64,000 nucleotides of DNA from Kondoa subrosea (lineage: Eukaryota), in contig BCIN01000001.1 of NCBI GenBank assembly GCA_039545335.1, positions 736,208 through 800,207 on the forward strand. The letters run 5' to 3'. A model generated the notes under the pieces. It had not been told where the DNA came from, searched no databases, and saw only the letters and a list, made by a program, of their open reading frames with translations. The stretch's first letter is position 1. The number at the start of each line of letters is the position of its first letter. Shown piece after piece: positions 4,853 through 57,123 of this stretch. Both the position numbers and the translations under genes were made by a program.

Positions 4853-7855
<3,003 letters not shown>

Positions 7856-15044: not shown

Positions 15045-16810
15045 ATGTCACGCTACAGCAAGGGCTTAGCGGGGTCTCCAAGAAGCTACTTCAGCAACCG
15101 CTTGCCTGCAGAACTACGCAGAGAGATCGTGCTCCTGGCAGCTCTGTCGGAAGCAGACATTGATAAACGTGAGGCGGCACTCTATTTCGCGTAGTAGTAT
15201 CATTTATTTTGGGTCTGTAGCTGGCTGTCAGCTTGCTGCTTTCCCTCGCACTCTTCTTCCTGTCTCGTATCTTGCAAATCTCGTCTCTCTTCGACTTGTT
15301 TGTCGAGAATTTTACCTGATTCTTGCACCTCTGGCTGGACACCTGTTCTTCAATAGCTGGGACCAATTGTATGATGCTTTGAATCGGTCAGAAGCTGGCC
15401 ATCTCTGGGCAATGGTCAAAGAGGTTCATATCACTTTCAAAAAGCGGCATTTTGACCGTCAGAGGAGTATCAAGTCCTTGAAGAAATTGGTAGCACATTG
15501 TCCTCGATTGAAATTGGTCACTATCGTGTCAGATGAAATGGATTGGTCCTCTCCTAGTAAGGCCTGTTGTGACGAGTGCTATTGGGATGACATTTACGAT
15601 TACGACGACGACGACGAGTTTGGAGGAACTGCCATGAGGGAGATGCAGGAAATATTGGAGTCTTCTGAAGTTCAAGTTTGGCAGCAATGGGGACATGGCG
15701 AGCAAGGTTGGGGAACTCAGTCGGATTTGAATTCTGTTGGTAAAGACTTCGACGGCAATCGACTGACCATTTTGGTATTGGATGATACATTGATGGTGTA
15801 CGCCGATGGGAAGTTTTGTGGACTGCGATGCTCCGACCTCAAAAACTGGAAGTCCATCACCAAAGCAGACATTCGCTCTGAGATGAGTGCCAATGAAGAA
15901 CCAGGTGAAGAACCAAGCTGGATCTTATCACAAATGCCAATCAATCTATCTTCTCTAAGGCTCAGCTTGCAAGACCGCAATTTCATGCTTGACAATGCTA
16001 ATTTGTTGCTGCATTGTGTCAATCTAAAATGTTTTACTCTGGTCGTTGATTACGAACCGACTTATTGGTCATCCATCAGTGATATCAATCTGCCGCCATC
16101 ACTTGTCGAATTGCACTACATTTTCAATTATCCCTCGGTTCTGTCAATCTGCGAATTGTGTTGCATCAACCGTTCGATCTCACAGCCAAAGCCTGCCTGG
16201 AATTCATTATCGTTGACCTTGCCTTTTGACTGGTCTGAATACGATTGGGAAGATCAAGAATATCTCGAATCCTGCCTCGAGGATCTCAGATTCGATGAAG
16301 GTTCCTCAGTCATTCCTGAACTTGGGTTACCTGTTGACCTGGTCCTGCTCATGATCGGAGATATGAGCCTGCACGAGTACGAAAAATACTATGGTGAACC
16401 AAGATTTACAACTTGGCTTGAAATGAAAATGCATGTTTGGCAGCTTCTCAAGCGAGATATGCGCAAAAAGGGAGTTAAACTAGAAGTTCATTCTGTGATC
16501 AATCCTTTTGCCTTTGAGGAGGAATATGTGAGTTTACACGATATCTTATCGGAACTCTTTTGATCGAGTCTTGGTGCAGCATCTCATCACCGAATACTTC
16601 GAACCTGCTCGGTTCGATTCACACTACCATCGTCCATCTCTATCAGCTCCATTCAATCGCCCTAGCAGTCGATTTTTGATACAGGTCAGTGTTGTGCCAG
16701 AGCCCGCGCTTTGGACTGACAATTGGCGGTAGTCGAAACTTGACACTTACTTCAAACCTGTTGTTACGGCAAGAACTGAGCTGCGTACAAGCTGCGGCGC
16801 ACGTGCCTGA
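15045..16810 (+). CDS. F-box-like / LRR-like protein, family copy 1
   Basis: N-terminal LPAELRREIVLL F-box-like motif; CPRLKLVTI, NLSSLRLSL, NLKCFTL LRR-like repeats; introns near 15169-15220, 16528-16579 and 16685-16732, shared with paralogs. Confidence 0.75.
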
Positions 16811-25515: not shown

Positions 25516-25605
25516 GCGGTGCTCGTTTGCTGAAGATTGCAAGTTGTAACGTTGTTTTCGCACGGTAACTCCTAAACCTCGCTCACAGCCTCTCACAGCG
25601 CTGCG

Positions 25606-26924
25606 ATGCTAGAACAGCTCTATGAATGGACTGTCTACTTCTCTGGCGGTCCTGAGACTCGCGACAGCTTTCCAGCAGAGCTCTCCGATGCTGAATTGAT
25701 GCAACTCTTGGCTGAGCTGCCTGCAACAGCTCTGCGATCTGAGTCTTTCCATGGTCTGAGATTGATTGGTATTCCTGCAAGAGATGGAACTTGCGTTATA
25801 GTATTGCAGCAGGAGGAGAAATCAACACCATCATCCGGATACAACTTCTTTCGTTCGGGCTGTTCTTTGAGCCATATGGCGACTGGTAAGGTCGATTATT
25901 ACGAGTTGCAACCGGAGGCGGTCTCTCTATCTAAATTACCATCCTATCTTTGCATGTCTGCACCTGCACGGTTCATGAATGGCATTACCGTCCTGCTTTT
26001 ATTGGCTTCTGAGGCGACTTCCACTCCTCACTCTGGCTTGAAGTGTCAAGTCCTTCGGAAGTCAGCTCACAAAATACCTCTGCGCGTTTGGACTTCAGAT
26101 CTAGACACTACTTCAGGTGATTGCGCTAGCACAACGGAAGTCGTCTGGGCTGACTATGTGTTAGCTTATCTCCAATCGTATTCACCAAACGATGTGGTCT
26201 TCTTGTTTTCAAATGACGAAGGTCAAACTAGACAGCTCTGGGCAAACAGTTCGATCTTGGCACAACGTTCAGAATACTTTGCTGCTATGTTCTCCTTCTC
26301 AACTCCTTCAATCACATCTCCATCCAGTACTGGCGGTAAAATTACTGAAGATGATGCTGATACGACCAGGGAAGATACTGTCTCGCCAGAAGATCATGAA
26401 CAGCTGGTTCGCAAGCAAATTTCTACTGCCGAAGCAAGTAAAGCAAGCGATGTTCATGTTATTCGTATCAGTAATCACAATTACCTTACGCACAAAGCTT
26501 TATTGCTTTATGTCTACTCTGGCGAACCAATCTTTTATGCTCCTTTGAAATCGTTAGAACTGGAGAATGATGCGGGCTTGAAAGAGGAGAGACCTTCACC
26601 TCGCGCGGTTTATCGCTTAGCTCAGTATGTTCTCTTCAAGTCAAATCTCCTGCCATACTGCTTTACTCATTAGAATCCGCAGTGAATTGAATCTTGTTAA
26701 TCTTCAGCAACATGCGCTGAAGAATATCATGCAGCAGATAACAGTCAAGAACGCTCGAGCAGAACTCTTTGATGAATTTGCTGCAACATATACGGAGGTC
26801 AGTGATTTGCTTTTTAGTCCAATGACGCTTGCTTACTTGTTTCGATTAGGTTCAGGATGCGCTGTTAAAGTGGACTGCTGAAAATTGGGCAGCACTCGAG
26901 GCTGATAAGAAGGCTGCTGCATGA
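25606..26924 (+). CDS. BTB/POZ domain protein
   Basis: NDVVFLF..LWANSSILAQRSEYFAAMF, HKALLLYVYSG, SPRAVYRLA. Confidence 0.85.
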
Positions 26925-31620: not shown

Positions 31621-31702
31621 GAGTAAGGAGTGGAGAGCCAGTAACCTTCATCAATACCCTTAAATACGAGATTAATTTGCACGCGAAGTTAAGCGACCTG
31701 AT

Positions 31703-32598
31703 CTACAGCTTCGGTTCGACGAGAGCCTTCGTGTGTATACCATGAACGAGTAGTTCGCCTTTCGTGTTGGTTATGCGGCACTCAATACTAAATCTAAGAT
31801 CAGCGACCTGGTAGATAACAAAAGTTGGTAAACTTACACAGCAGTATTGCGACTCTGCTTGAGGGTAGAGGAAATGATTCTGGAAGAGCGACCTCACATG
31901 AGAGAACATCGTAGCGATGGTGGAACAGCTGACCGCATGATTTCTCCTTTCCGAGCTGGACCGATGAATCGTATCGACAGATCCTCTTCGAATTAAATCA
32001 GAAAAGTGGTATGTTTTCGAGAAAGGTTCGAAAAGCTCACGAGAAACACCTCCGAAAGGCATCTGGTCATACGATGCACCTTCCAAAGCTATAATCGACG
32101 CGGCAGAGCAGATATCGATGAGAAAAGCCATGCAGCCTCCGTTGACTGTACCGATCTATCCAGCATGATGTTCAGCTGATATCTAGATCATGTAGAGCTT
32201 GATATGCACATGATTCTGAAGCAGACATGCATGTGATTCAAGACAGTCGATTTCGTGATAAGAGTAGCGAACACACCAGCATGTCGTCTGAAACCACTGA
32301 TCAGATTTTCTGCTGCTCAGTGACACCTGAACTTACCTGCGACCTCTACAGTATGCACTATAGTAGCTTTGGAGCCTTTTCTCGCAATGTATTTCCCATT
32401 CTTGACATCTGCATTCTCTACCTTGACAGATTCCAGCTGAATACGTTTGAAGACCTCGTTCCCAAAGCCTAGTCTTGTTTCACGACTGAACTATCCAGTG
32501 CAGTCGTCAGAAAGATTGTACCGGATCCATGTAAAGCGACTCACAGTATGCAAGTAATCGTACAGGATCTGTACTTCTGGTACTTCGCTAAAGCTCAT
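31703..32598 (-). CDS. PaaI/ACOT13-like hotdog thioesterase, copy 1
   Basis: Spliced DDMLNHIGTVNGGCMAFLID..GGVSQDLSIRFIGPA..IECRITN..HGIHTK. Confidence 0.85.
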
Positions 32599-32965
32599 AT
32601 TCAGCTGAGTGGTGGAACAAAACCTACGATTGCAGAAGCATGAGCTGGACAGGTTGGATCAGACTAGAAGACTTGAGAAGACTCGCGAAAAGCAGATCCA
32701 CTGTATCTGTTACTTTTTTGTTTGATCGAAAACCACTTGAGACTATAATAGCAGAGTGTCTGCTTACTTGCTTGCACAGAAACTATCGCACAGGTGTTAT
32801 ATTGAGGAGCGATTTGAGCTCTTTAAGTGTGTAAGAAGATAGGTTTCAATGAAGAGTGCTTGAGATTGGGCACTGTTTCACATTTCGTTAGGGGTCAGAA
32901 AAGGGGACAGTATTTCTGAAAACCTCACCACGAGTACTGAAAGAAAAGGGGTTAGTTTCTAGCTC

Positions 32966-32980
32966 GCTTGATTAGTAAGC
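32966..32980. promoter_or_regulatory. Conserved 15-bp element GCTTGATTAGTAAGC (contains Yap1-type TTACTAA on minus strand)
   Basis: Identical 15-mer upstream of all three thioesterase copies. Confidence 0.65.
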
Positions 32981-33528
32981 TGTTTCCACGGTCAGGTATG
33001 GGCATGTGATAGCTGCAGAGGTCCAACGCTTGTTCAGTGATCCAAAGAGCAGGTCAGACCACATGTAGGAAACTGCGTAACGCCGGTTAGGAGGGAGTAT
33101 GCAGATATCGAGAATCTAAATTTTTTCCAAGTCTGCGACAATAGGGTCAAAGGGATACGGTAAAGTCTATAACAAATAATCTAGTTGGCTGTATACCTGG
33201 CAGTAAATTCATGACGAACAGAATATACAGAGGACGCTTAGGGGAGATGCAGAAGCAAGAAACAAGACCGCTTGTGACGGTCGAAAACAGATGCGCGCAA
33301 CCACCATTGCAATGACAGAGGAATAATCGCGGACGCCAAAGAGAGACTTCGACAGAGGTGATAGACAAGAGATACGATGACAGAAAACGCTCGAGAAGGG
33401 GTGATATTGCGGGTCCGGGGTCTGACCAAAGATAAACGGGCCCTTTACTGGTCAAAGAAGACCCGGAAGCTCAGCGCAACCGTCATGGGCCGACATTCAA
33501 GCAAAGACCAAAATACCCAACGTGTGTT

Positions 33529-34418
33529 CTACAGCTTTGGTCCGCTGAGTGCCTTCGTATGTATACCATGGGCTAGTAGTTTGCCTTGCATGTTGGTGAT
33601 GCGGCACTCGATACTGCATTTGAGATCAGCTAGATGACGCGTAACAAAAATTGGTAATAAACTTACACAGCAGTATTACGACTCTGTTTGAGAGTGGTGG
33701 ATGTGATGCTGCATGCCACACCTCAAGTAAACGATTACTCATTCAATCTGGATCAGACTGACCGTATAATTTCTCCTTTGCGAGCTGGACCGATGAATTG
33801 TATCGACAGATCCTCTTCGATTTATAGTCAGAACAGCAGTGTCTTGGCAAGAAAGGTCAAAAGCTCACGAGAAACACCTCCGAAAGGTATTTGGTCATCC
33901 GTCACAGCTTCCAAAGCTATAGCAGCGTGGAAGAACAGCAATCTATGAGAAAGGCCATGCAGCCACCATGTAATGTCTCAGTCTATTTGAATGGGCGTGA
34001 GTTGGCACTATAGCTTGGCACTGTATCACTTACAGGATTCTGCCCCCAAGAAAACTACGCTTCAATAACTGATTCGACTCAAGTAGAGGTGCCGAACGGA
34101 CTAACATATCGTCTGACAACACACATTAGACTATTCCAGCTAATGACAGGAGTGCTCACCCGTGACTTCCACAGTAAATACTATGGTAGCTTTGAAGTCT
34201 TTCCTTTGAACGTACTTCCCATTTTTGACATCTGCATTTTCTACATTGATGGATTCCAGCTGGATACGCTTGAAGATCTTGTGACCAAAGCCCATACTTG
34301 TTTCCCTGAGCTATTGAATGCGGTTGGTCGGACTAATCGCCTGGAGTCGTGCAAAGGAACGTACAATGTGCAGGTAATCGTCCAGGAATTGTACTTCCGG
34401 TGCTTTTTTAGAGCTCAT
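33529..34418 (-). pseudogene. PaaI thioesterase copy 2, frameshifted (or sequencing error)
   Basis: 1-nt deletion near 33922-33927 relative to copies 1 and 3 gives premature TAG at 33917-33919 just after LHGGCMAFLID. Confidence 0.7.
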
Positions 34419-34480
34419 GATCGGCTGAATGGTGGTACAGGACCTACTGTGCGAGCATGAAAGCGAAGGGGATAATTCTT

Positions 34481-34495
34481 GCTTGATTAGTAAGC
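34481..34495. promoter_or_regulatory. Conserved 15-bp element GCTTGATTAGTAAGC
   Basis: 62 nt upstream of copy 2 ATG. Confidence 0.65.
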
Positions 34496-35198
34496 AGTCT
34501 GTACAGTCAGATGCGCACGTCATACACGCAAGAGGTCGATGCGAAGTCGGGGATCGAAAGAGTGTCAGACGAGATGTAGTACTCCGAGGCAGCTACATAA
34601 TAGAATGACAACAAGAGCAGAACTCCGATTCAAGCAAGATATATGCGACAGTAGCGTATGTGTTCCTTTTCAACTGAGGACGATGAAAGCGAAGACGGAA
34701 GGGGACAATGGCGAGAGATCGAAAAGAAGTAAAGACCAGTAGGCTGTGCATCAGATCAGCAGCGAAAATGCAGATGTCATCGACCAGCTGAATCTTCCAC
34801 AGACAAGTGTACGATAGTGGGACACCGAGTATGGATCTCAGCCTACATAGAATGCTGAGCTGAATATGTGGCAGTAAGTTCATGACCAAACGACCTCCGG
34901 AGGGTGATCTGATCAGATAAAGGAGCAAGAAACATAGACCTGGTAGTGATGGTCGAAATCGAGCTTTCGCGACCAGCAATGCAAAGACAGCTTAACAGTC
35001 GCAGATTCCGCTTAACAGTACAGAGCGAATTCGACATCAAGCGACAGCCAAGAGGAATGTTGACTGAAAACCCGAAAATATTGCGGTAGTAGATGTCTGA
35101 GCAAGGATAGGACGGCCCTTTGCCGAAGAGTTAAGAGTCAAAGATTCGGGGCAGACGCCTGTCTCCAAACGTAAAGACAAAAATGCATAACTTCTGTT

Positions 35199-36092
35199 CT
35201 ACAGCTTCGGTTTGATGAGTGCCTTCGTGTGTATAGCATGAGCGAGAAGTTCGCCTTGCATGTCTGTGATGCGGCATTCGATACTAGGTCTGTGATCAGC
35301 TATAGCAAGCAGGACAGAATTAGTAAACTCACACAGCAGTATTCCGACTCTGCTTGAGTGTAGTGGATGTGATTCTACAGACTCGTTTCGTGTGAGGATA
35401 TTCTATTGCCGCTCTAATCTGAAACGGCTGACCGTATCGTTTCTCCTTTGCGAGCTGGACCGATATACCGTATCGACAAATCCTCTTTAAGACAACAGTC
35501 AGAGCAGCACATTGAAATTGAGAGCGTTTGACTCGCGAGAAACACCTCCGAATGGCATTTGACCTTCCGGTACAGCTTCCAAAGCTATAGCCGATGCGGA
35601 AGAGCAGACATCGATGAGAAAAGCCACGCAGCCTCCATGAAGTGTGCCAATCTATTCCACAGAACATTGAGCTGAGATCTGTGTACTGAAGCGCTTCGTA
35701 CGAACGGGGTTCTGGAGCAAAAATATTACTTAAGTGCCAATTTCCAGTAATATTAGCGCACACACCAGCATATCGTCTGACAGGACAGCACAGATGAGAT
35801 CTTCAACCGGTGAAGGATGCTCAACTTACCTGCGACCTCTACTGTATGCACTACAATAGCTTTGGAGCCTTTCCTCGGAACATATTTGCCATTCTTGACT
35901 TCAGCGTTTTCTATCTTGACAGATTCTAGCTGCACACGCTTGAAGATATCTTTGCCAAACCCCATGTTTGCTCCTCTGATCTTGTAGATGCATGTGCACC
36001 TGTGAGGCAAATCTCTGAAAATTGGCGAAGTGACGAACAATGTGGAAGTGATCGTGCTGCATCTGATCTTCTGGTGCTAGAGTAGATCCCAT
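35199..36092 (-). CDS. PaaI/ACOT13-like hotdog thioesterase, copy 3
   Basis: Spliced DDMLNPIGTLHGGCVAFLID (canonical NxxGxLHGG..D). Confidence 0.88.
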
Positions 36093-44677: not shown

Positions 44678-45317
44678 TTGACGAAGGAGAGCTCAGAGCG
44701 TGGCGCGTCAAAAGAAACAAGCACTGCATGTATTGCACATTGTATAGTAGATACTGGTTTATATTAAAAGCCTCAACATCCCTTGCAAGAATATCACAAG
44801 CTCTTTTGAATATTCTCAAACATACCCTCGACTAGAAACCCATTCTACTGTTATTTGCCCCAATAAATATACGCACAGCCCTTTCCCTTCTTTTGTTGAT
44901 GTTGTCTACTTTGATACAAGCCCCTTTTTGAAGTCTAATGATTGAATGTTGAATGCTGAGAAATGATGTCTAAAATTTGAGAAAAAGAAATGCCGTCTAA
45001 GTCTATAGAATTCTTCTAGTGTTGTTCTAAGTTTGCGAGTAGATGAAGAACGAGTAAGAAAAATGCTGAAAGTAAATGGGAAAGACGGTATCGCTTCTTC
45101 GAATTTCTAAGCATGCAACGAGTGGTGAAAAAGGGCTTGACTTGAATAGTAGAAAGCTGATTGAAGGAGAGAGATGCATAATTCGTCTATTGAAATCGGT
45201 TGGTTGAATGGATGCAAGGATATCTTCTATTTTGCAATAATGTCTTGAGGCGAAACGGAAATCTTAATCACATAAGGGGGAAAGCCGGAGGAGTCTTCTG
45301 TCGCCAAAGTGGGACTA

Positions 45318-47666
<2,349 letters not shown>

Positions 47667-50707: not shown

Positions 50708-51872
50708 ATGCTTCTCCGATCTCCTAAAGCATGCAACAAGCGAGCCTTCCACTCCTCCCAATCGCTTGGTCGAAGTATTAGAATCTACGAGGTATCGCCT
50801 CGTGATGGCTTACAGGTGTGCATGAAGCCATTCTTCATGCTGTAGCTGAAGTTTATTTAGAACGAAAGAAAGACTATACCCCCAGACGTCAAGATTGGGC
50901 TGATCCAGCGATTGGCGAAATGCGGCTTCAAGTATGTTGAAGCTGGGTCCTTTGTTTCTCCAAAATGGGTTCCTCAGATGGCAAGCACAGCTGAAGTTCT
51001 GCCTCATCTTCCTCAAGCCGCAGGGATCACGTATTCATGTCTTACGCCGAACGAGAAAGCTCTTGAACTCTTCCATTCTTCTGGCTCTGAGCAATACTGC
51101 TCTGAAATTGCTGTGTTCCTAGCGGCGAGTGAGTCCTTCAATAAAGTGAATCTCAACCGGAGCGTGCAGCAATCACTCGATATCTGTCAACACGTGATAG
51201 AGAAAGCTCGAAGGTCAAATCTGCGGGTCAGAGGATACGTCTCGACTGTTATTGGTTGTCCTTTTGAAGGCCCGATCGAAGCGAAACAAGTCGCTTCCTT
51301 GACCAAGACATTGCTTGACATGGGCTGCTATGAAGTCTCGCTTGGCGATACAAACGGAGTCGGTGTGCCAGGTGCATGGGAGAATTTACTCAACGAAGTG
51401 ACGAGACATGTATCGGTCGAGAAACTGGCTGTGGGTCGTCTTTTCCGCTGTGAGTGCTATGCTGATTGACCACTCAGTCTCATTGTCACGATACATATGG
51501 CTGTGGTATCGCGAATGTACTTCGAGCAGTAGAAATGGGTGTCAACACTGTTGATAGCTCGATAGCAGGGTGAGTGCGACCCTGAAACGTTCGAAGTTTC
51601 CTGATGCAAGCAGGCTGGGCGGATGTCCTTATGCACCAGGCGCTACAGGCAATGTGGCTACTGAAGATGTTGTCTACGTGAACTGACTTGTCTGTGACAC
51701 TGCAAAAGCTAAGACTTTTGTACAGGCTCTGCATGGAGAAGGTTACGAAACGGGCATAGATTTGAGAAAGGCTGCGGACGTAGGGCAATGGATCAGTGAC
51801 TATTTAGGACGCGGGAACAGTAGCAGAGCTGGTATTGCTACTCTAGCCACGGAGAGGCGAATAAAAGATTGA
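50708..51872 (+). CDS. Hydroxymethylglutaryl-CoA lyase, mitochondrial presequence
   Basis: [56 protein letters not shown]. Confidence 0.95.
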
Positions 51873-51897
51873 TAGCAAGGTTGTCATACTCTCTAGC

Positions 51898-53592
51898 TCA
51901 GTCACGTGCGGGTCTTGCTCTCCCATCGTTTGGAGTTCCGAAGTCCATCGCCGGTAGATAGCGCTATAATGAGGCTTCTTCAAGAGCGAGTCTAAGACAC
52001 TGATAAGTATGAACTTACCTGTCTATATTTCGGTACAAATCTAGATCTTTTCGGCTTGGGTTGCGACTTCATGGGCGTTGACGCGTCACAAACGAGCTGA
52101 AAATACTCAGTGATAAGATGCTACATATATCCGATGAGCTGAATAGTGCCGAAAAAAAGGCCCGCTTACATTGCCTTCCTCTAAAACAAATGGACTTTCA
52201 GCTGCATTCACTCGCAAATTGATTTTCCTCTTGAATGTCAGGCCCTTGAGCTTGTGAAAGACATGCATCTTCAGCTGCAGTAGATTTCGTATTTGGGGCA
52301 TCTCATCAGCCACTTGCGCTTCTTCCTCACTCGAAGGGCGCAATAAGTTCAGGAGCACTTCTGTAGGGGCGCCTAGCTTCGCCATGAGCTGCTCGTCTTC
52401 GTCCTCATCATAAATCTCCATTATTTGATCAAGATATACTGCATCGGCAGCTTCCTCTTGCCAGTCTGCGGGTAAATTCAAGACAAGCTGCGTGCATTTA
52501 GGTAATTTATTCTTGTCTTGAAGTAGCGGAATGAGGTCGGATAACATCAAGACTGAGGGATAGAGAAGAGTGTATTGCACGATTGCCACGGATGCAGGTA
52601 AAAGAATGTCGCAAAGAGATCCCCAGCCGGAAGAATAGTCGAATACGAGATTAACTTGTTGCAGATTGGGACATTGTAGCAGAGCTGTGCGATTGGTAGT
52701 CCCGTACATGTCGTGAGGTATCGTCAAGCTGAGAGATTGAAGAGCAGGAGATAAGTCGGATAGAAGACGGGAAGGAGTATCCAGGTCATGATCGTCGAAC
52801 CATTGCAAACAAATACTCATTTCTGTAATCGTTTCGATCTTCAAGAGCGTGTCTAGCTGTTGGTCTGAGTAAACTCCATCCACAAAAGCGACCAATGAAT
52901 CGTCATCCATGCAGAAGACTAGGCTTTTCGGTATAATACCGCTGGCACTCTGAACTGAAAGCTTGGAACGACAATATTCATTGTCATCGCCGACTCCCCA
53001 CGATTGTAAGTATTTAATTCCAGCGGAATCGAGAATTTCCTCCATCTTCCGCAGAGGCGAACCATGCAGATAATCGTCGTCTTCGTAGTAGTGTAGTCTT
53101 AGAGGATAGACCATTTTGTCGGCGACGAGCGTCAGAGCGTGAAGATTCGGTAGACTACCTACCAATCTCATAAGAAGCGCGTAAGCTGAATTTCGTCGAA
53201 AGTCTTTCGCGCTGAAAGTAATGTGAACTTCTTGAACCATACACAGGTAAGGCTGCCCCTTGAAGTAATCCAAGGCTTCCTGCACGCCCGCCCAGCTATT
53301 GAAAAACAATTGGCGAAATGCAAGCGGAGCGAGAAGCGCGTAAAATTCCCAGCAGACGCGTCTGAGCTTGGTGAGATTTGAGAGATAGAGAACAGGGAGA
53401 AGTGTTCGAGGAAAGGCGGCCAGCTCGCAACCAGCTAGAGCCACACCGCTGTCAGCATAAGTGCAAGGAGATCATGACACCCTGTTGCAGCTCACGCTTC
53501 CTGTAGTCTGCTTCTGCATGTGCTGCGAGAAGAATGATCTCTCTACGCAGCTCGAATGGCAGGTTGCCAAACAGTGTTTTGCTAGGACGCAT
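51898..53592 (-). CDS. F-box-like / LRR-like protein, family copy 3
   Basis: LPFELRREIILL; LAGCELAAFPRTLLPV shared with copy 1; same intron positions; HLITEYF exon. Confidence 0.72.
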
Positions 53593-53843: not shown

Positions 53844-53938
53844 AACGATTGACATATGCATTGCATGGATAGGTTTCGCGATTTTCATGTACAAACCCAT
53901 ATCATCAGCTTGCGCAGTATTGACTCTAGCGTGCTACG

Positions 53939-55650
53939 TCAGGCTTGAAAAAAAGAGTCGAGATTGGACTACGACATAGTTAGGTCCAGTGCAGATCGCG
54001 GACAGAACACGCTGACTTACGTGTATCAAATCACGACTGCCAGGGCGAGAAGCTGCAGCTGCTAGGATCTCACGACGACAACTTGGGTTGACGGGCGCAG
54101 ATCTGAAGTATTCAGTAATCAGATGCTGCGCGGAGATTCGATCAGAAAATTTCAATAGCACATGATATGAACTCACATTTTCCTCCTCGAGAGCGAAAGG
54201 GTTGGTGATGGAATGAACTTCTAGTTTGACTCCCTTCTCGCGCATATCTCGCTTGAGAACTCGCCAAACATGCATTTTCATTTCGAGCCAAGTTGTAAAC
54301 TTTGGTTCGCCATAGGTTTCTTCGTACTCTTGCAGGCTTATGTTTCCGAGCATACACAATGCCAGTTCAACAGACACCCCCAATTCAGGGATGATTGTAC
54401 AGCCATCATCGAATTGCAGACATTCGATGCAGCCTAGAACGTATTCCTCATCTTGTTTGTTAGTTGCAGACCATGCAAAAGGTACGGTCAAAGACAGCAG
54501 ATTGTAGGAATGTATGTGACTCGGAGAATTTAAATTGTTCTGACATCGCAAATCGCCAATTGCCAAAATCGAGGGATAGTTGAGGATGTAGTGTAATTCG
54601 CTGAGCGATGCTGGAAAGCGGAAGTTGCCGATAGATTGCCAACCGAAGGTCTTGTGATCGAAAACCAGAGTAACAGATTTGAGATTGATGAATTGCAGCA
54701 AGGCTTTAGATGCCATAGATCGACATCATATAAGCTAAGTCTCAGCGAAACAAGATTGCGTGGCAACTGCCTCAAAATCCAGCCAATATCTGCATCTGGT
54801 TCATCATCAGGACTCATCCCAAAGCGAATGTCTGCTTTCGTGATGGATTTCCAGCCCCTGAGGTCGGAGCATCGCAGTCCAGAATACTTCCCATCGAGAT
54901 ACACCATCCGTGTATCGTCCGATTCCAGTATGGTCACTTGATCGCTGACAACGGCCTTCGTAGCAGGCTCCGACTGAATCCCCCAACCTTGTTCTCCAGA
55001 TCCCCAATGCTGCCAAACTTGGATTTCTGAGGACTCAGCTACTTTTTGCATCTCCTTCATCGCCGTGCCTCCGAAGCCATCATCTCCATAGTCGTAATCG
55101 CCCTCTAAGTAGCACTTATCACAGCAGCAATTTTCACGAGAGCGAGACCAATCCATCTCATCTGCCGCAATTGTGACCAATCTTAATACAGGACAATGTG
55201 CTACCAATTTCTTCAGTAATTTGATACTCCTCTGACGGTCAAAGTGCTGCTTCTTGAAAGTGATATGGACCTCTTTGACGGTCGACAGGATTTGGCCAGC
55301 TTCTGACCATTTCAAAGCATCATGCAATTGGTCCCAGCTATTGAAGAATAGGTTTCAAGCCAGAGGTGCAAGAATAAGGTAAAATTCTCGACAAACAAGT
55401 CGAAGGGAGACAAGATTCGAAAGATATGAGACAGGAAGCAGAGTACGAGGGAAAGCAGCGAGACGACAACCAGCTACAGCAGATTGCTAGAATGAGTGAC
55501 GCGGCTACACGAGTAGAGTGCCATCTTACGTTTATCAATGTCTGCTTCAGAAAGCGCTGCCAGGAGCACAATCTCTCTGCGTAATTCTGCAGGCAAGCGG
55601 TTGCTGAAGTAGCTTCTGCTGATGTTCACCGAATGCTGATGTGAAACCAT
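53939..55650 (-). pseudogene. F-box-like family copy 2 with frameshift (or sequencing error)
   Basis: Closely similar to copy 1; ~7-nt deletion near 54715-54725 splits it into two ORFs. Confidence 0.7.
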
Positions 55651-55833: not shown

Positions 55834-57123
55834 ATGTCAGCCAACGCCTCTCAGTCAAGCCTGATTCTGGAGCTCCTAGGATTCCTTTTACCAGAGCACA
55901 ATAACCAGAATGCAGTACAAGTGATTGCCTTGCAAAATCTCTTGCAATTTACACCTTCGAGCAATCCGCATAGGCAGCTTTTCAGCGGTCGTATACAGCC
56001 GCAGCAACAACAGACTTGGATTTCTCTGATTGCGAATGCTAGTCGGCGAGAATCACTGGGCAGCGTTGGGCAGCATAGCGCTATCAACATATTGGTCAAT
56101 TTGACAGATGGGCTAGAAAGGGTTAATATGGTCTTGAAAGATCAAGGATGGTTAGAATGGGCTATCAAGACTATTCTCGTGCGCTTCTTCGACTTTTGCT
56201 TGTTGCTACCTTGGCCAATTTTTGAGAACAGCAAAAGGATTCTTTACTTGCGGATCCACTTTGCATGCTGCTTTCAAACCTAACGCAAAAGTCAGAGAAC
56301 GTCTCTTCTTCACTCCTTTCAATGAAAAACGGAAATTCGTCGGCTTTCGCACAACTGTTTGAAGTGTTTGTGAACGGAGCAGAGAAGAACCCACAAGTGA
56401 ACAAGAATGCTTCCTTTGATTTCTTAGCATCGTGCTTTGCCAATATTACAACCCTTCCAGCTGGAAGACGAGCTTTGTTTGCTTTACCGAAAGATGAAAA
56501 GGGAGAAAGTGCCATCACCCGCCTGGCTGCTTTCACGGAATGTAAAGACACGATACGAAGAGGAGGAGTCGCTAGTATACTCAAGTAGGCTCTTTTTCTG
56601 TTCTCCTTGTAACAGTAGGCTGATCATTGAATCAGAAATCTGTGTTTCGATACTTCAGCTCATGAAGATTTGCTTTCGCCCGAAAAGCAGAACATTCTGC
56701 CTCGCCTTCTTTTACCTCTTTGTGGTCCGGAAGAATATCGTTAGTCAAAAAAAAAAAAAACCTTCTTTTAGCTCAGTTCTGACATCGGATATAACAGCTT
56801 TTGAAGAAATGGACAGTTTCCCCCCTGAGGTACAATTGCTAGAAGAGAACAAAGTTCGAGAACCAGATGCAGCTATAAGAGCCATTCTTTTGGAAGCTTT
56901 ACTACTCTTGTCAAGTTCCGCGAACGGAATAGGACGAGAACACTTGCGATTGAAGAATGTGTATCGGATAGTACAAGTACTACATTTGAGTGAAACGGAT
57001 GAAAGGTGTAAAGAGCTTTGTGTTAGGTTAGTGGGATTGCTGATGAGGGACGAGTTGTCACGGGATATGCAAGGTCAGCAAATAGAGGAACTAGATGAAG
57101 ATTCAACCGTGCAGGAAATGTAA
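55834..57123 (+). CDS. HGH1: Hgh1/FAM203 (eEF2 chaperone) armadillo-like protein
   Basis: ADPLCMLLSNLT, FDFLASCFANIT, IRRGGVASILRNLCF, LPRLLLPLCGPEE, REPDAAIR..LEALLLL. Confidence 0.9.

Follow-up and report, generated by a model that had tools for sequence, protein, structure and literature searches.

Three paralogous genes lie within the window, by which is meant the whole 64-kb stretch of Kondoa subrosea DNA that was analysed, and all three open a small exon near the C-terminus with the same heptapeptide, HLITEYF. We give even chances to the interpretation that they form a lineage-restricted, fast-evolving family of fungal F-box-like/LRR receptors with a conserved putative docking peptide in the tail. 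Two of the genes look intact and one appears to be decaying. Their most likely role would be to select substrates for ubiquitin ligases of the cullin (SCF-like) type, with the flexible tail predicted for each gene being encoded by two mini-exons. The conserved block around the heptapeptide, [NS]PF..EE..HLITEYF, may serve some partner as a short docking peptide or as a segment that folds conditionally, and it is not taken here as a canonical PCNA-binding box. Fungal genomes carry many fast-evolving F-box-like genes.

The G+C content of the window is 44–49%, and its GT..AG introns are short, at about 50 bases. Its gene content, with DEAD-box helicase, HMG-CoA-lyase-like, BTB, MFS and DUF384/Hgh1-like genes, is a set typical of a fungus, and neither Rfam families nor tRNAs were found across it. 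Searching the window by tblastn with the copy 1 model returned exactly three related genes: copy 1 at 15045-16810 (+), copy 2 at 55650-53939 (-) and copy 3 from 53592 (-). Copies 2 and 3 are arranged head to tail on the minus strand, about 37 kb away from copy 1.

Copy 1 is predicted to consist of four exons encoding 538 residues, joined by the donors GTGAGG, GTGAGT and GTCAGT and the acceptors TAG, CAG and TAG. Exon 1 (15045..15168, +) runs from the ATG at 15045 through 41 codons plus 1 base to the GTGAGG donor at 15169, and contains the F-box-like start LPAELRREI (15102-15128). Exon 2 (15221..16527, +) contains the invariant block LAAFPRTLLPV (15232-15264), LRLVCREFY as the second half of the F-box-like region, the acidic insert CCDECY (15565-15621) and the LRR-type solenoid, and terminates in ...NPFAFEEEY. 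The 35 codons of exon 3 (16580..16684, +) encode HLITEYF (16580-16600) and then a P/S/R-rich linker, the last codon, CAG (16682-16684), supplying the Q of a second motif. The remainder of that motif, SKLDTYF (16733-16753), opens exon 4 (16733..16810, +), which encodes 25 residues and ends with the stop codon at 16808-16810.

The exons of copy 2 (53939..55650, -) were placed at 55650-55530, 55473-54177, 54125-54021 and 53968-53939, with HLITEYF (54125-54105) and SNLDSFF (53968-53948) in the tail exons. Copy 3 (51843..53592, -) is apparently intact. Its first three exons are 53592-53496, 53434-52170 and 52120-52019, the third starting with HLITEYF (52120-52100), while its last exon is ambiguous, at 51963-51898 in an earlier version or at 51977-51843 if a 41-base intron is used. 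The position of intron 1 is shared by all three copies, which have it within the same codon and in phase 1. Over the whole body, copy 3 is 36% identical to copy 1, and the pieces of copy 2 are 56–68% identical to it. The CCDxCY acidic insert is common to copies 1 and 2, as the initial annotation had reported, and does not occur in copy 3.

Copy 2 is a pseudogene. An in-frame TGA is present at 55357-55355, where copy 1 has GGA, and the reading frame changes near 54725-54709 as a result of a 7-base deletion relative to copy 1; neither the stop nor the frameshift had been recorded previously. Re-assembly of two runs of one sample, at word depths of 143 and 53, gave contigs with identical letters over 53900-55614; the sample being the same, this is not an independent one, but the agreement argues against a local assembly slip. 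The decay appears recent, since dN/dS against copy 1 in exon 2 is about 0.3. The earlier description of an expanding family is therefore weakened, one member of the trio being a pseudogene-like wreck; that the three are true paralogs stands.

Copies 1 and 2 are not uniformly similar along their length. The 5′ part (15081-15548 in copy 1 against 55146-55617 in copy 2) is 87–92% identical, compared with about 75% further on, and a stretch in which both copies have identical letters, 55585-55617, is a branching point of the re-assembled contigs. The higher 5′ identity and the branching of the contig graph at this place suggest gene conversion between intact copy 1 and its pseudogene partner.

An LRR-type solenoid body is supported with modest confidence by structure prediction. 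The AlphaFold2 model of copy 1 exon 2 (pLDDT 61.7, pTM 0.55) contains 11 strands alternating with helices; its N-terminal 29 residues have pLDDT < 50 and the acidic Cys-rich insert is of low confidence. Foldseek placed COI1-ASK1 first (E 4.2e-4, with a TM of only 0.2), and the other matches included TIR1, D3, MAX2, Dia2, NLR and other LRR proteins, interspersed with less probable matches to aldolases and dehydrogenases. With VIA-align, which works independently of Foldseek, the Z values were 11.1 and 10.4 for RanGAP1, 9.2 for Rad7, 9.1 for FBXL2, 8.8 for FBXL3, 8.1 for Dia2 and 7.5 for Skp2, with NLRP3 also among the top rows, and values of 8–13 can be reached by repeat proteins through a common repeat arrangement. 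In the ESM-Atlas, copies 1 and 3 were nearest to the same fungal clusters (scores 0.94–0.96). F-box or F-box-like families are found in 13–18% of the members of some of these clusters and, together with LRR_15, in 34–97% of the members of others.

All three copies have an F-box-like start (LPAELRREI in copies 1 and 2, LPFELRREI in copy 3). The F-box consensus consists of a first helix of the form LPxE(I/L)..I, followed by a hydrophobic third helix of the (V/L)(C/S)(K/R)x(W/F) type. As aligned by eye, LP(A/F)ELRREI is followed by the invariant LAAFPRTLLPV insert and then by LR(L/R)VC(R/W)EFY, such that the presumed F-box has about 20 extra residues between the first helix and the VCxxF part. 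Scans of exon 1 (41 aa), exon 2 (435 aa) and exon 3 against Pfam gave no family at E up to 10, the F-box profiles PF00646 and PF12937 (roughly 45 residues) included, with one exception in copy 3; the exons were scanned separately, and the presumed F-box is split by intron 1. No Pfam LRR profile was matched at E up to 10 in copies 1 and 3. As the exception, residues 290-385 of copy 3 exon 2 (52170-53444, -) matched the Cns1/TTC4 'Wheel' with E 0.0074 and 17 bits against a cut-off of 27; sub-threshold and missing from copy 1, this match is probably due to chance.

Of the original F-box/LRR-like assignment, the LRR part was supported with modest confidence by the predicted strand–helix solenoid and by the presence of solved F-box/LRR proteins among the best structural matches. 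The F-box part has the LPxELRxxI start in its favor and the absence of a Pfam match for the exon pieces against it; an F-box in this family is plausible and would provide a link to Skp1. Known SCF receptors of the F-box/LRR type (FBXL2, FBXL3, Skp2, plant COI1/TIR1 and yeast Dia2) are alike in their LPxE-type start and strand–helix solenoid. The family described here differs from them in giving neither an F-box nor an LRR match in Pfam with its exon pieces, in the LAAFPRTLLPV insert within the presumed F-box, in the acidic Cys-rich loop and in the tail motifs. One such receptor, yeast SCF-Dia2, has reportedly been seen on the replisome.

The first tail motif is strictly conserved. As originally described, all three copies keep HLITEYF, preceded by Y in copy 1 and by N in copies 2 and 3, and the flanks diverge, the remainder of exon 3 being barely alignable. 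In each copy the motif stands at the start of exon 3, directly after a CAG or TAG acceptor. The corresponding 21-base stretches are CATCTCATCACCGAATACTTC, CATCTGATTACTGAATACTTC and CATCTTATCACTGAGTATTTT in the three copies; every difference among them falls at a third codon position and is synonymous. Elsewhere, synonymous sites have reached saturation between copies 1 and 3 (pS 0.77–0.83). The longest identical run between these two copies in exon 2 is LAAFPRTLLPV, with 11 residues, and the next has 6, so that the seven residues of HLITEYF outlast all but one of them. With lengths of 52, 51 and 49 bases, the introns preceding the motif would encode residues that are unconserved.

Because the changes are exclusively synonymous, the synonymous sites are saturated elsewhere and the intron-encoded residues are not kept, HLITEYF is judged from the three paralogs of this one genome to be genuine coding sequence under strong purifying selection. 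It could be argued that the tail exons are an artefact of the gene models, transcripts ending in or just past intron 2 and the motif being untranslated, and the unspliced reading of copy 1 does stop only 12 codons past EEEY. Nevertheless, the synonymous divergence of the 21 bases, the GT..AG borders, the differing lengths and frame classes of the introns and a conserved branch-site-like stretch ahead of the acceptor of the HLITEYF exon make this explanation very improbable.

A structural role was considered for the same segment, in which HLITEYF would either close the repeat domain as its last element, a strand or helix that caps it, or be a fold-back pseudo-substrate tail. The conserved island continues unbroken from the end of the domain, with [NS]PF..EE.. 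directly ahead of HLITEYF; the motif begins about 10 residues past the last confident strand, and hydrophobic and polar residues alternate within it. However, both models give the segment pLDDT < 50, every copy has an intron between it and the domain, and the P/S/R-rich linker that follows is unconserved, so that a cap or pseudo-substrate is regarded as quite unlikely. In the read-through model of copy 2, a poor model of an artificial protein (mean pLDDT 53.8), the residues with pLDDT < 50 are 174-212, comprising the acidic segment, the intron-encoded residues and HLITEYF. These low values would agree with a flexible tail. When the 35-residue peptide of exon 3 was co-folded with the repeat domain, in a run without controls, the score was 0.00, and no conclusion is drawn from it.

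The acid-flanked block that spans intron 2 was also compared by eye with patterns for other partners. It fits the acidic dileucine pattern, [DE]xxxL[LI], in all three copies and the Atg8-type LIR in copy 1 only; an NPF motif is present in copies 1 and 2 and replaced by SPF in copy 3. Such fits only show that the conserved block matches several loose consensus patterns.

The second tail motif is less uniform. In copy 1, QSKLDTYF is an exact PIP-box consensus, with Q encoded before the intron and the other residues after it, and in copy 2 the motif is HSNLDSFF (53968-53948 plus the H codon ahead of the intron), followed by QA and a stop; both agree with the initial annotation, and both are obtained with the first usable acceptor, 48 and 52 bases past the donor, respectively. 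For copy 3, the QRYLPAMDF given previously is obtained with an acceptor at 55 bases, but other acceptors are also possible, those at 41, 44 or 128 bases leading to a different tail that matches the relaxed PIP pattern. A looser block, x-S-x-L-D-x-[YF]-F, stands at the start of the second mini-exon. An origin of the two mini-exons by internal duplication was not established: a 13-base match past the YF codons in copy 1 was reached by 85 of 2000 shuffles, and the best match in copy 2 was equalled by 532 of 2000.

Both tail motifs had been proposed as PIP-box-like. In the literature, the canonical PIP box is given as QXXhXXaa, with non-canonical boxes that have no Gln also known (PMC7225939), and the PIP degron as a PIP box with TD at positions 5 and 6, before the aromatics, and K/R at +4 past the second aromatic (PMC7225939, PMC3711418). 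Prestel et al. 2019 (PMC6881253) state that affinity for PCNA is strongly dependent on how positively charged the box's surroundings are, up to about 5 residues away, and that proteins whose motifs have negatively charged flanks are likely non-binders.

Within its last 60 residues copy 1 has a strict match, QSKLDTYF, and a relaxed one, YHLITEYF; its other 478 residues contain neither kind. In 20000 shuffles, a strict match within the last 60 residues occurred with a frequency of 0.0023–0.0045, two relaxed matches within the same region with 0.0066–0.015 and at least one relaxed match anywhere in the protein with 0.82; these are post hoc frequencies, uncorrected for the many genes and motif types scanned. 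The six-frame ORFs of the window yielded 3 strict matches in 26168 residues, one of the three being an artefact of reading through an intron of copy 2. Within 5 residues on either side, the net charge around HLITEYF is -3, -2 and -3 in copies 1, 2 and 3, with an internal Glu in all. Around the second motif, copy 1 has +2 and copy 2 has 0. Flanks that are neutral or positive are thus lacking at HLITEYF and present at the second motif of copy 1, which is also the only one to fit QXXhXXaa, copy 2 having H at the first position.

If the tail motifs were PIP boxes, docking on PCNA could bring SCF to sites of replication or repair, or the proteins themselves could be destroyed through a PIP degron. 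In favor of this explanation, copy 1 strictly matches Qxx[ILMV]xx[FYW][FYW] close to its C-terminus, the match having positive flanks and being rare in shuffles, and both matches of copy 1 are confined to the tail; the existence of Gln-less PIP boxes and of other ubiquitin-ligase receptors that bear a PIP box adds to it. Nevertheless, the most strongly selected motif, HLITEYF, has no Gln and has acidic flanks in all three copies, and the strict motif is found in one copy out of three, since copy 2 has H and is a pseudogene and copy 3 is ambiguous. The resemblance of copy 1 to a degron, with T at position 5 and R at +4, did not hold for the family: TE replaces TD in every copy, and a basic residue at +4 is found in copy 1 only (R), against P in copy 2 and C in copy 3.

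With no Gln, acidic flanks and degron features that are not kept, HLITEYF appears a poor PCNA candidate, and a PCNA mechanism for it is disfavored on its sequence. Docking on PCNA through QSKLDTYF of copy 1 is possible from its fit to the consensus. A good PCNA candidate, in the form of a strict box, is confined to this one copy. The proposal of tandem PIP-box-like motifs is weakened for HLITEYF, and PCNA docking as the general explanation of the tails is considered unlikely. The more elaborate proposal, in which lineage-specific fungal F-box/LRR receptors with tandem PIP-like peptides from mini-exons ride on PCNA as a clamp-tethered SCF set with varied substrate-binding repeats, is held to be distinctly unlikely. 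A short docking or conditionally folding peptide for some other partner is the reading that we prefer for the [NS]PF..EE..HLITEYF block.

Two ligase receptors offer precedents for an association with PCNA. Human F-box DNA helicase 1 (FBH1) is the nearest one for an F-box combined with a PIP box: according to PMC3711418, it is recruited by PCNA through a PIP box plus an APIM at opposite termini, and is degraded by means of a PIP degron of non-canonical type that has the basic residue at +4 and no TD. It differs in being a UvrD-type helicase rather than an LRR protein, and in that binding has been measured for FBH1, whereas the family described here is known from sequence. Cdt2 (DTL), the receptor of CRL4-Cdt2, is the second precedent and uses a C-terminal PIP box to dock on PCNA (PMC6312923). 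It differs in being a WD40 receptor of a CUL4 ligase, with unrelated fold and sequence. Tandem PIP boxes at the C-terminus of an F-box/LRR receptor would be a variation on a known principle and not a new principle.

Searches for homologs returned blanks. Exon 2 gave no match when 5.8 billion proteins were searched by indexed words, the paralog profile gave none at E up to 0.001 when HMMER was run exhaustively over 1.84 billion representatives, and metagenome scans with the single protein and with a two-row alignment found no relative. A sequence search of the PDB with the paralog profile returned only a chance row (E 1.6). As a control, the DUF384/Hgh1-like ORF at 56428-57123 (+) matched one protein in the 5.8-billion library, with 58% identity over 37% of the query, and no relative among longer proteins. 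Since the universally conserved Hgh1-like control found a single protein, the libraries searched appear to hold few fungal proteins, and because even this control came out nearly blank, the blanks are uninformative on the spread of the family. The best-matching literature on F-box, PIP box and PCNA described no fungal family of F-box plus PIP-box proteins, and nothing relevant was found among the best matches on F-box expansions in Basidiomycota.

Other repeated or ligase-related features were observed in the window. A unit of about 1.7–1.8 kb is repeated three times in tandem at 31677-35974, with blocks 67–93% identical (families D1, D2 and D5–D8), and is probably another tandemly triplicated gene. 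The ORF at 25576-26673 (+), 9 kb from copy 1, has a BTB/POZ match (E 4.9e-06) and is a possible adaptor of another class of cullin ligase. Two DEAD-box helicase genes share a stretch of 84% identity (6796-6863 and 46515-46582), and the ORF at 45315-47476 (-) gave DEAD and Helicase_C matches.

The three-gene family illustrates how easily PIP-like patterns are over-read, the best-conserved motif being the one least suited to PCNA. A receptor family with a well-conserved C-terminal peptide would be useful for annotation and would offer a clean candidate for peptide pull-down, and it would be unsurprising. If the tails do bind PCNA, the genes would represent a diversified family of clamp-docked SCF receptors, a class of ligase receptor of which, to our knowledge, only single cases are known (FBH1, and Cdt2 for CRL4).
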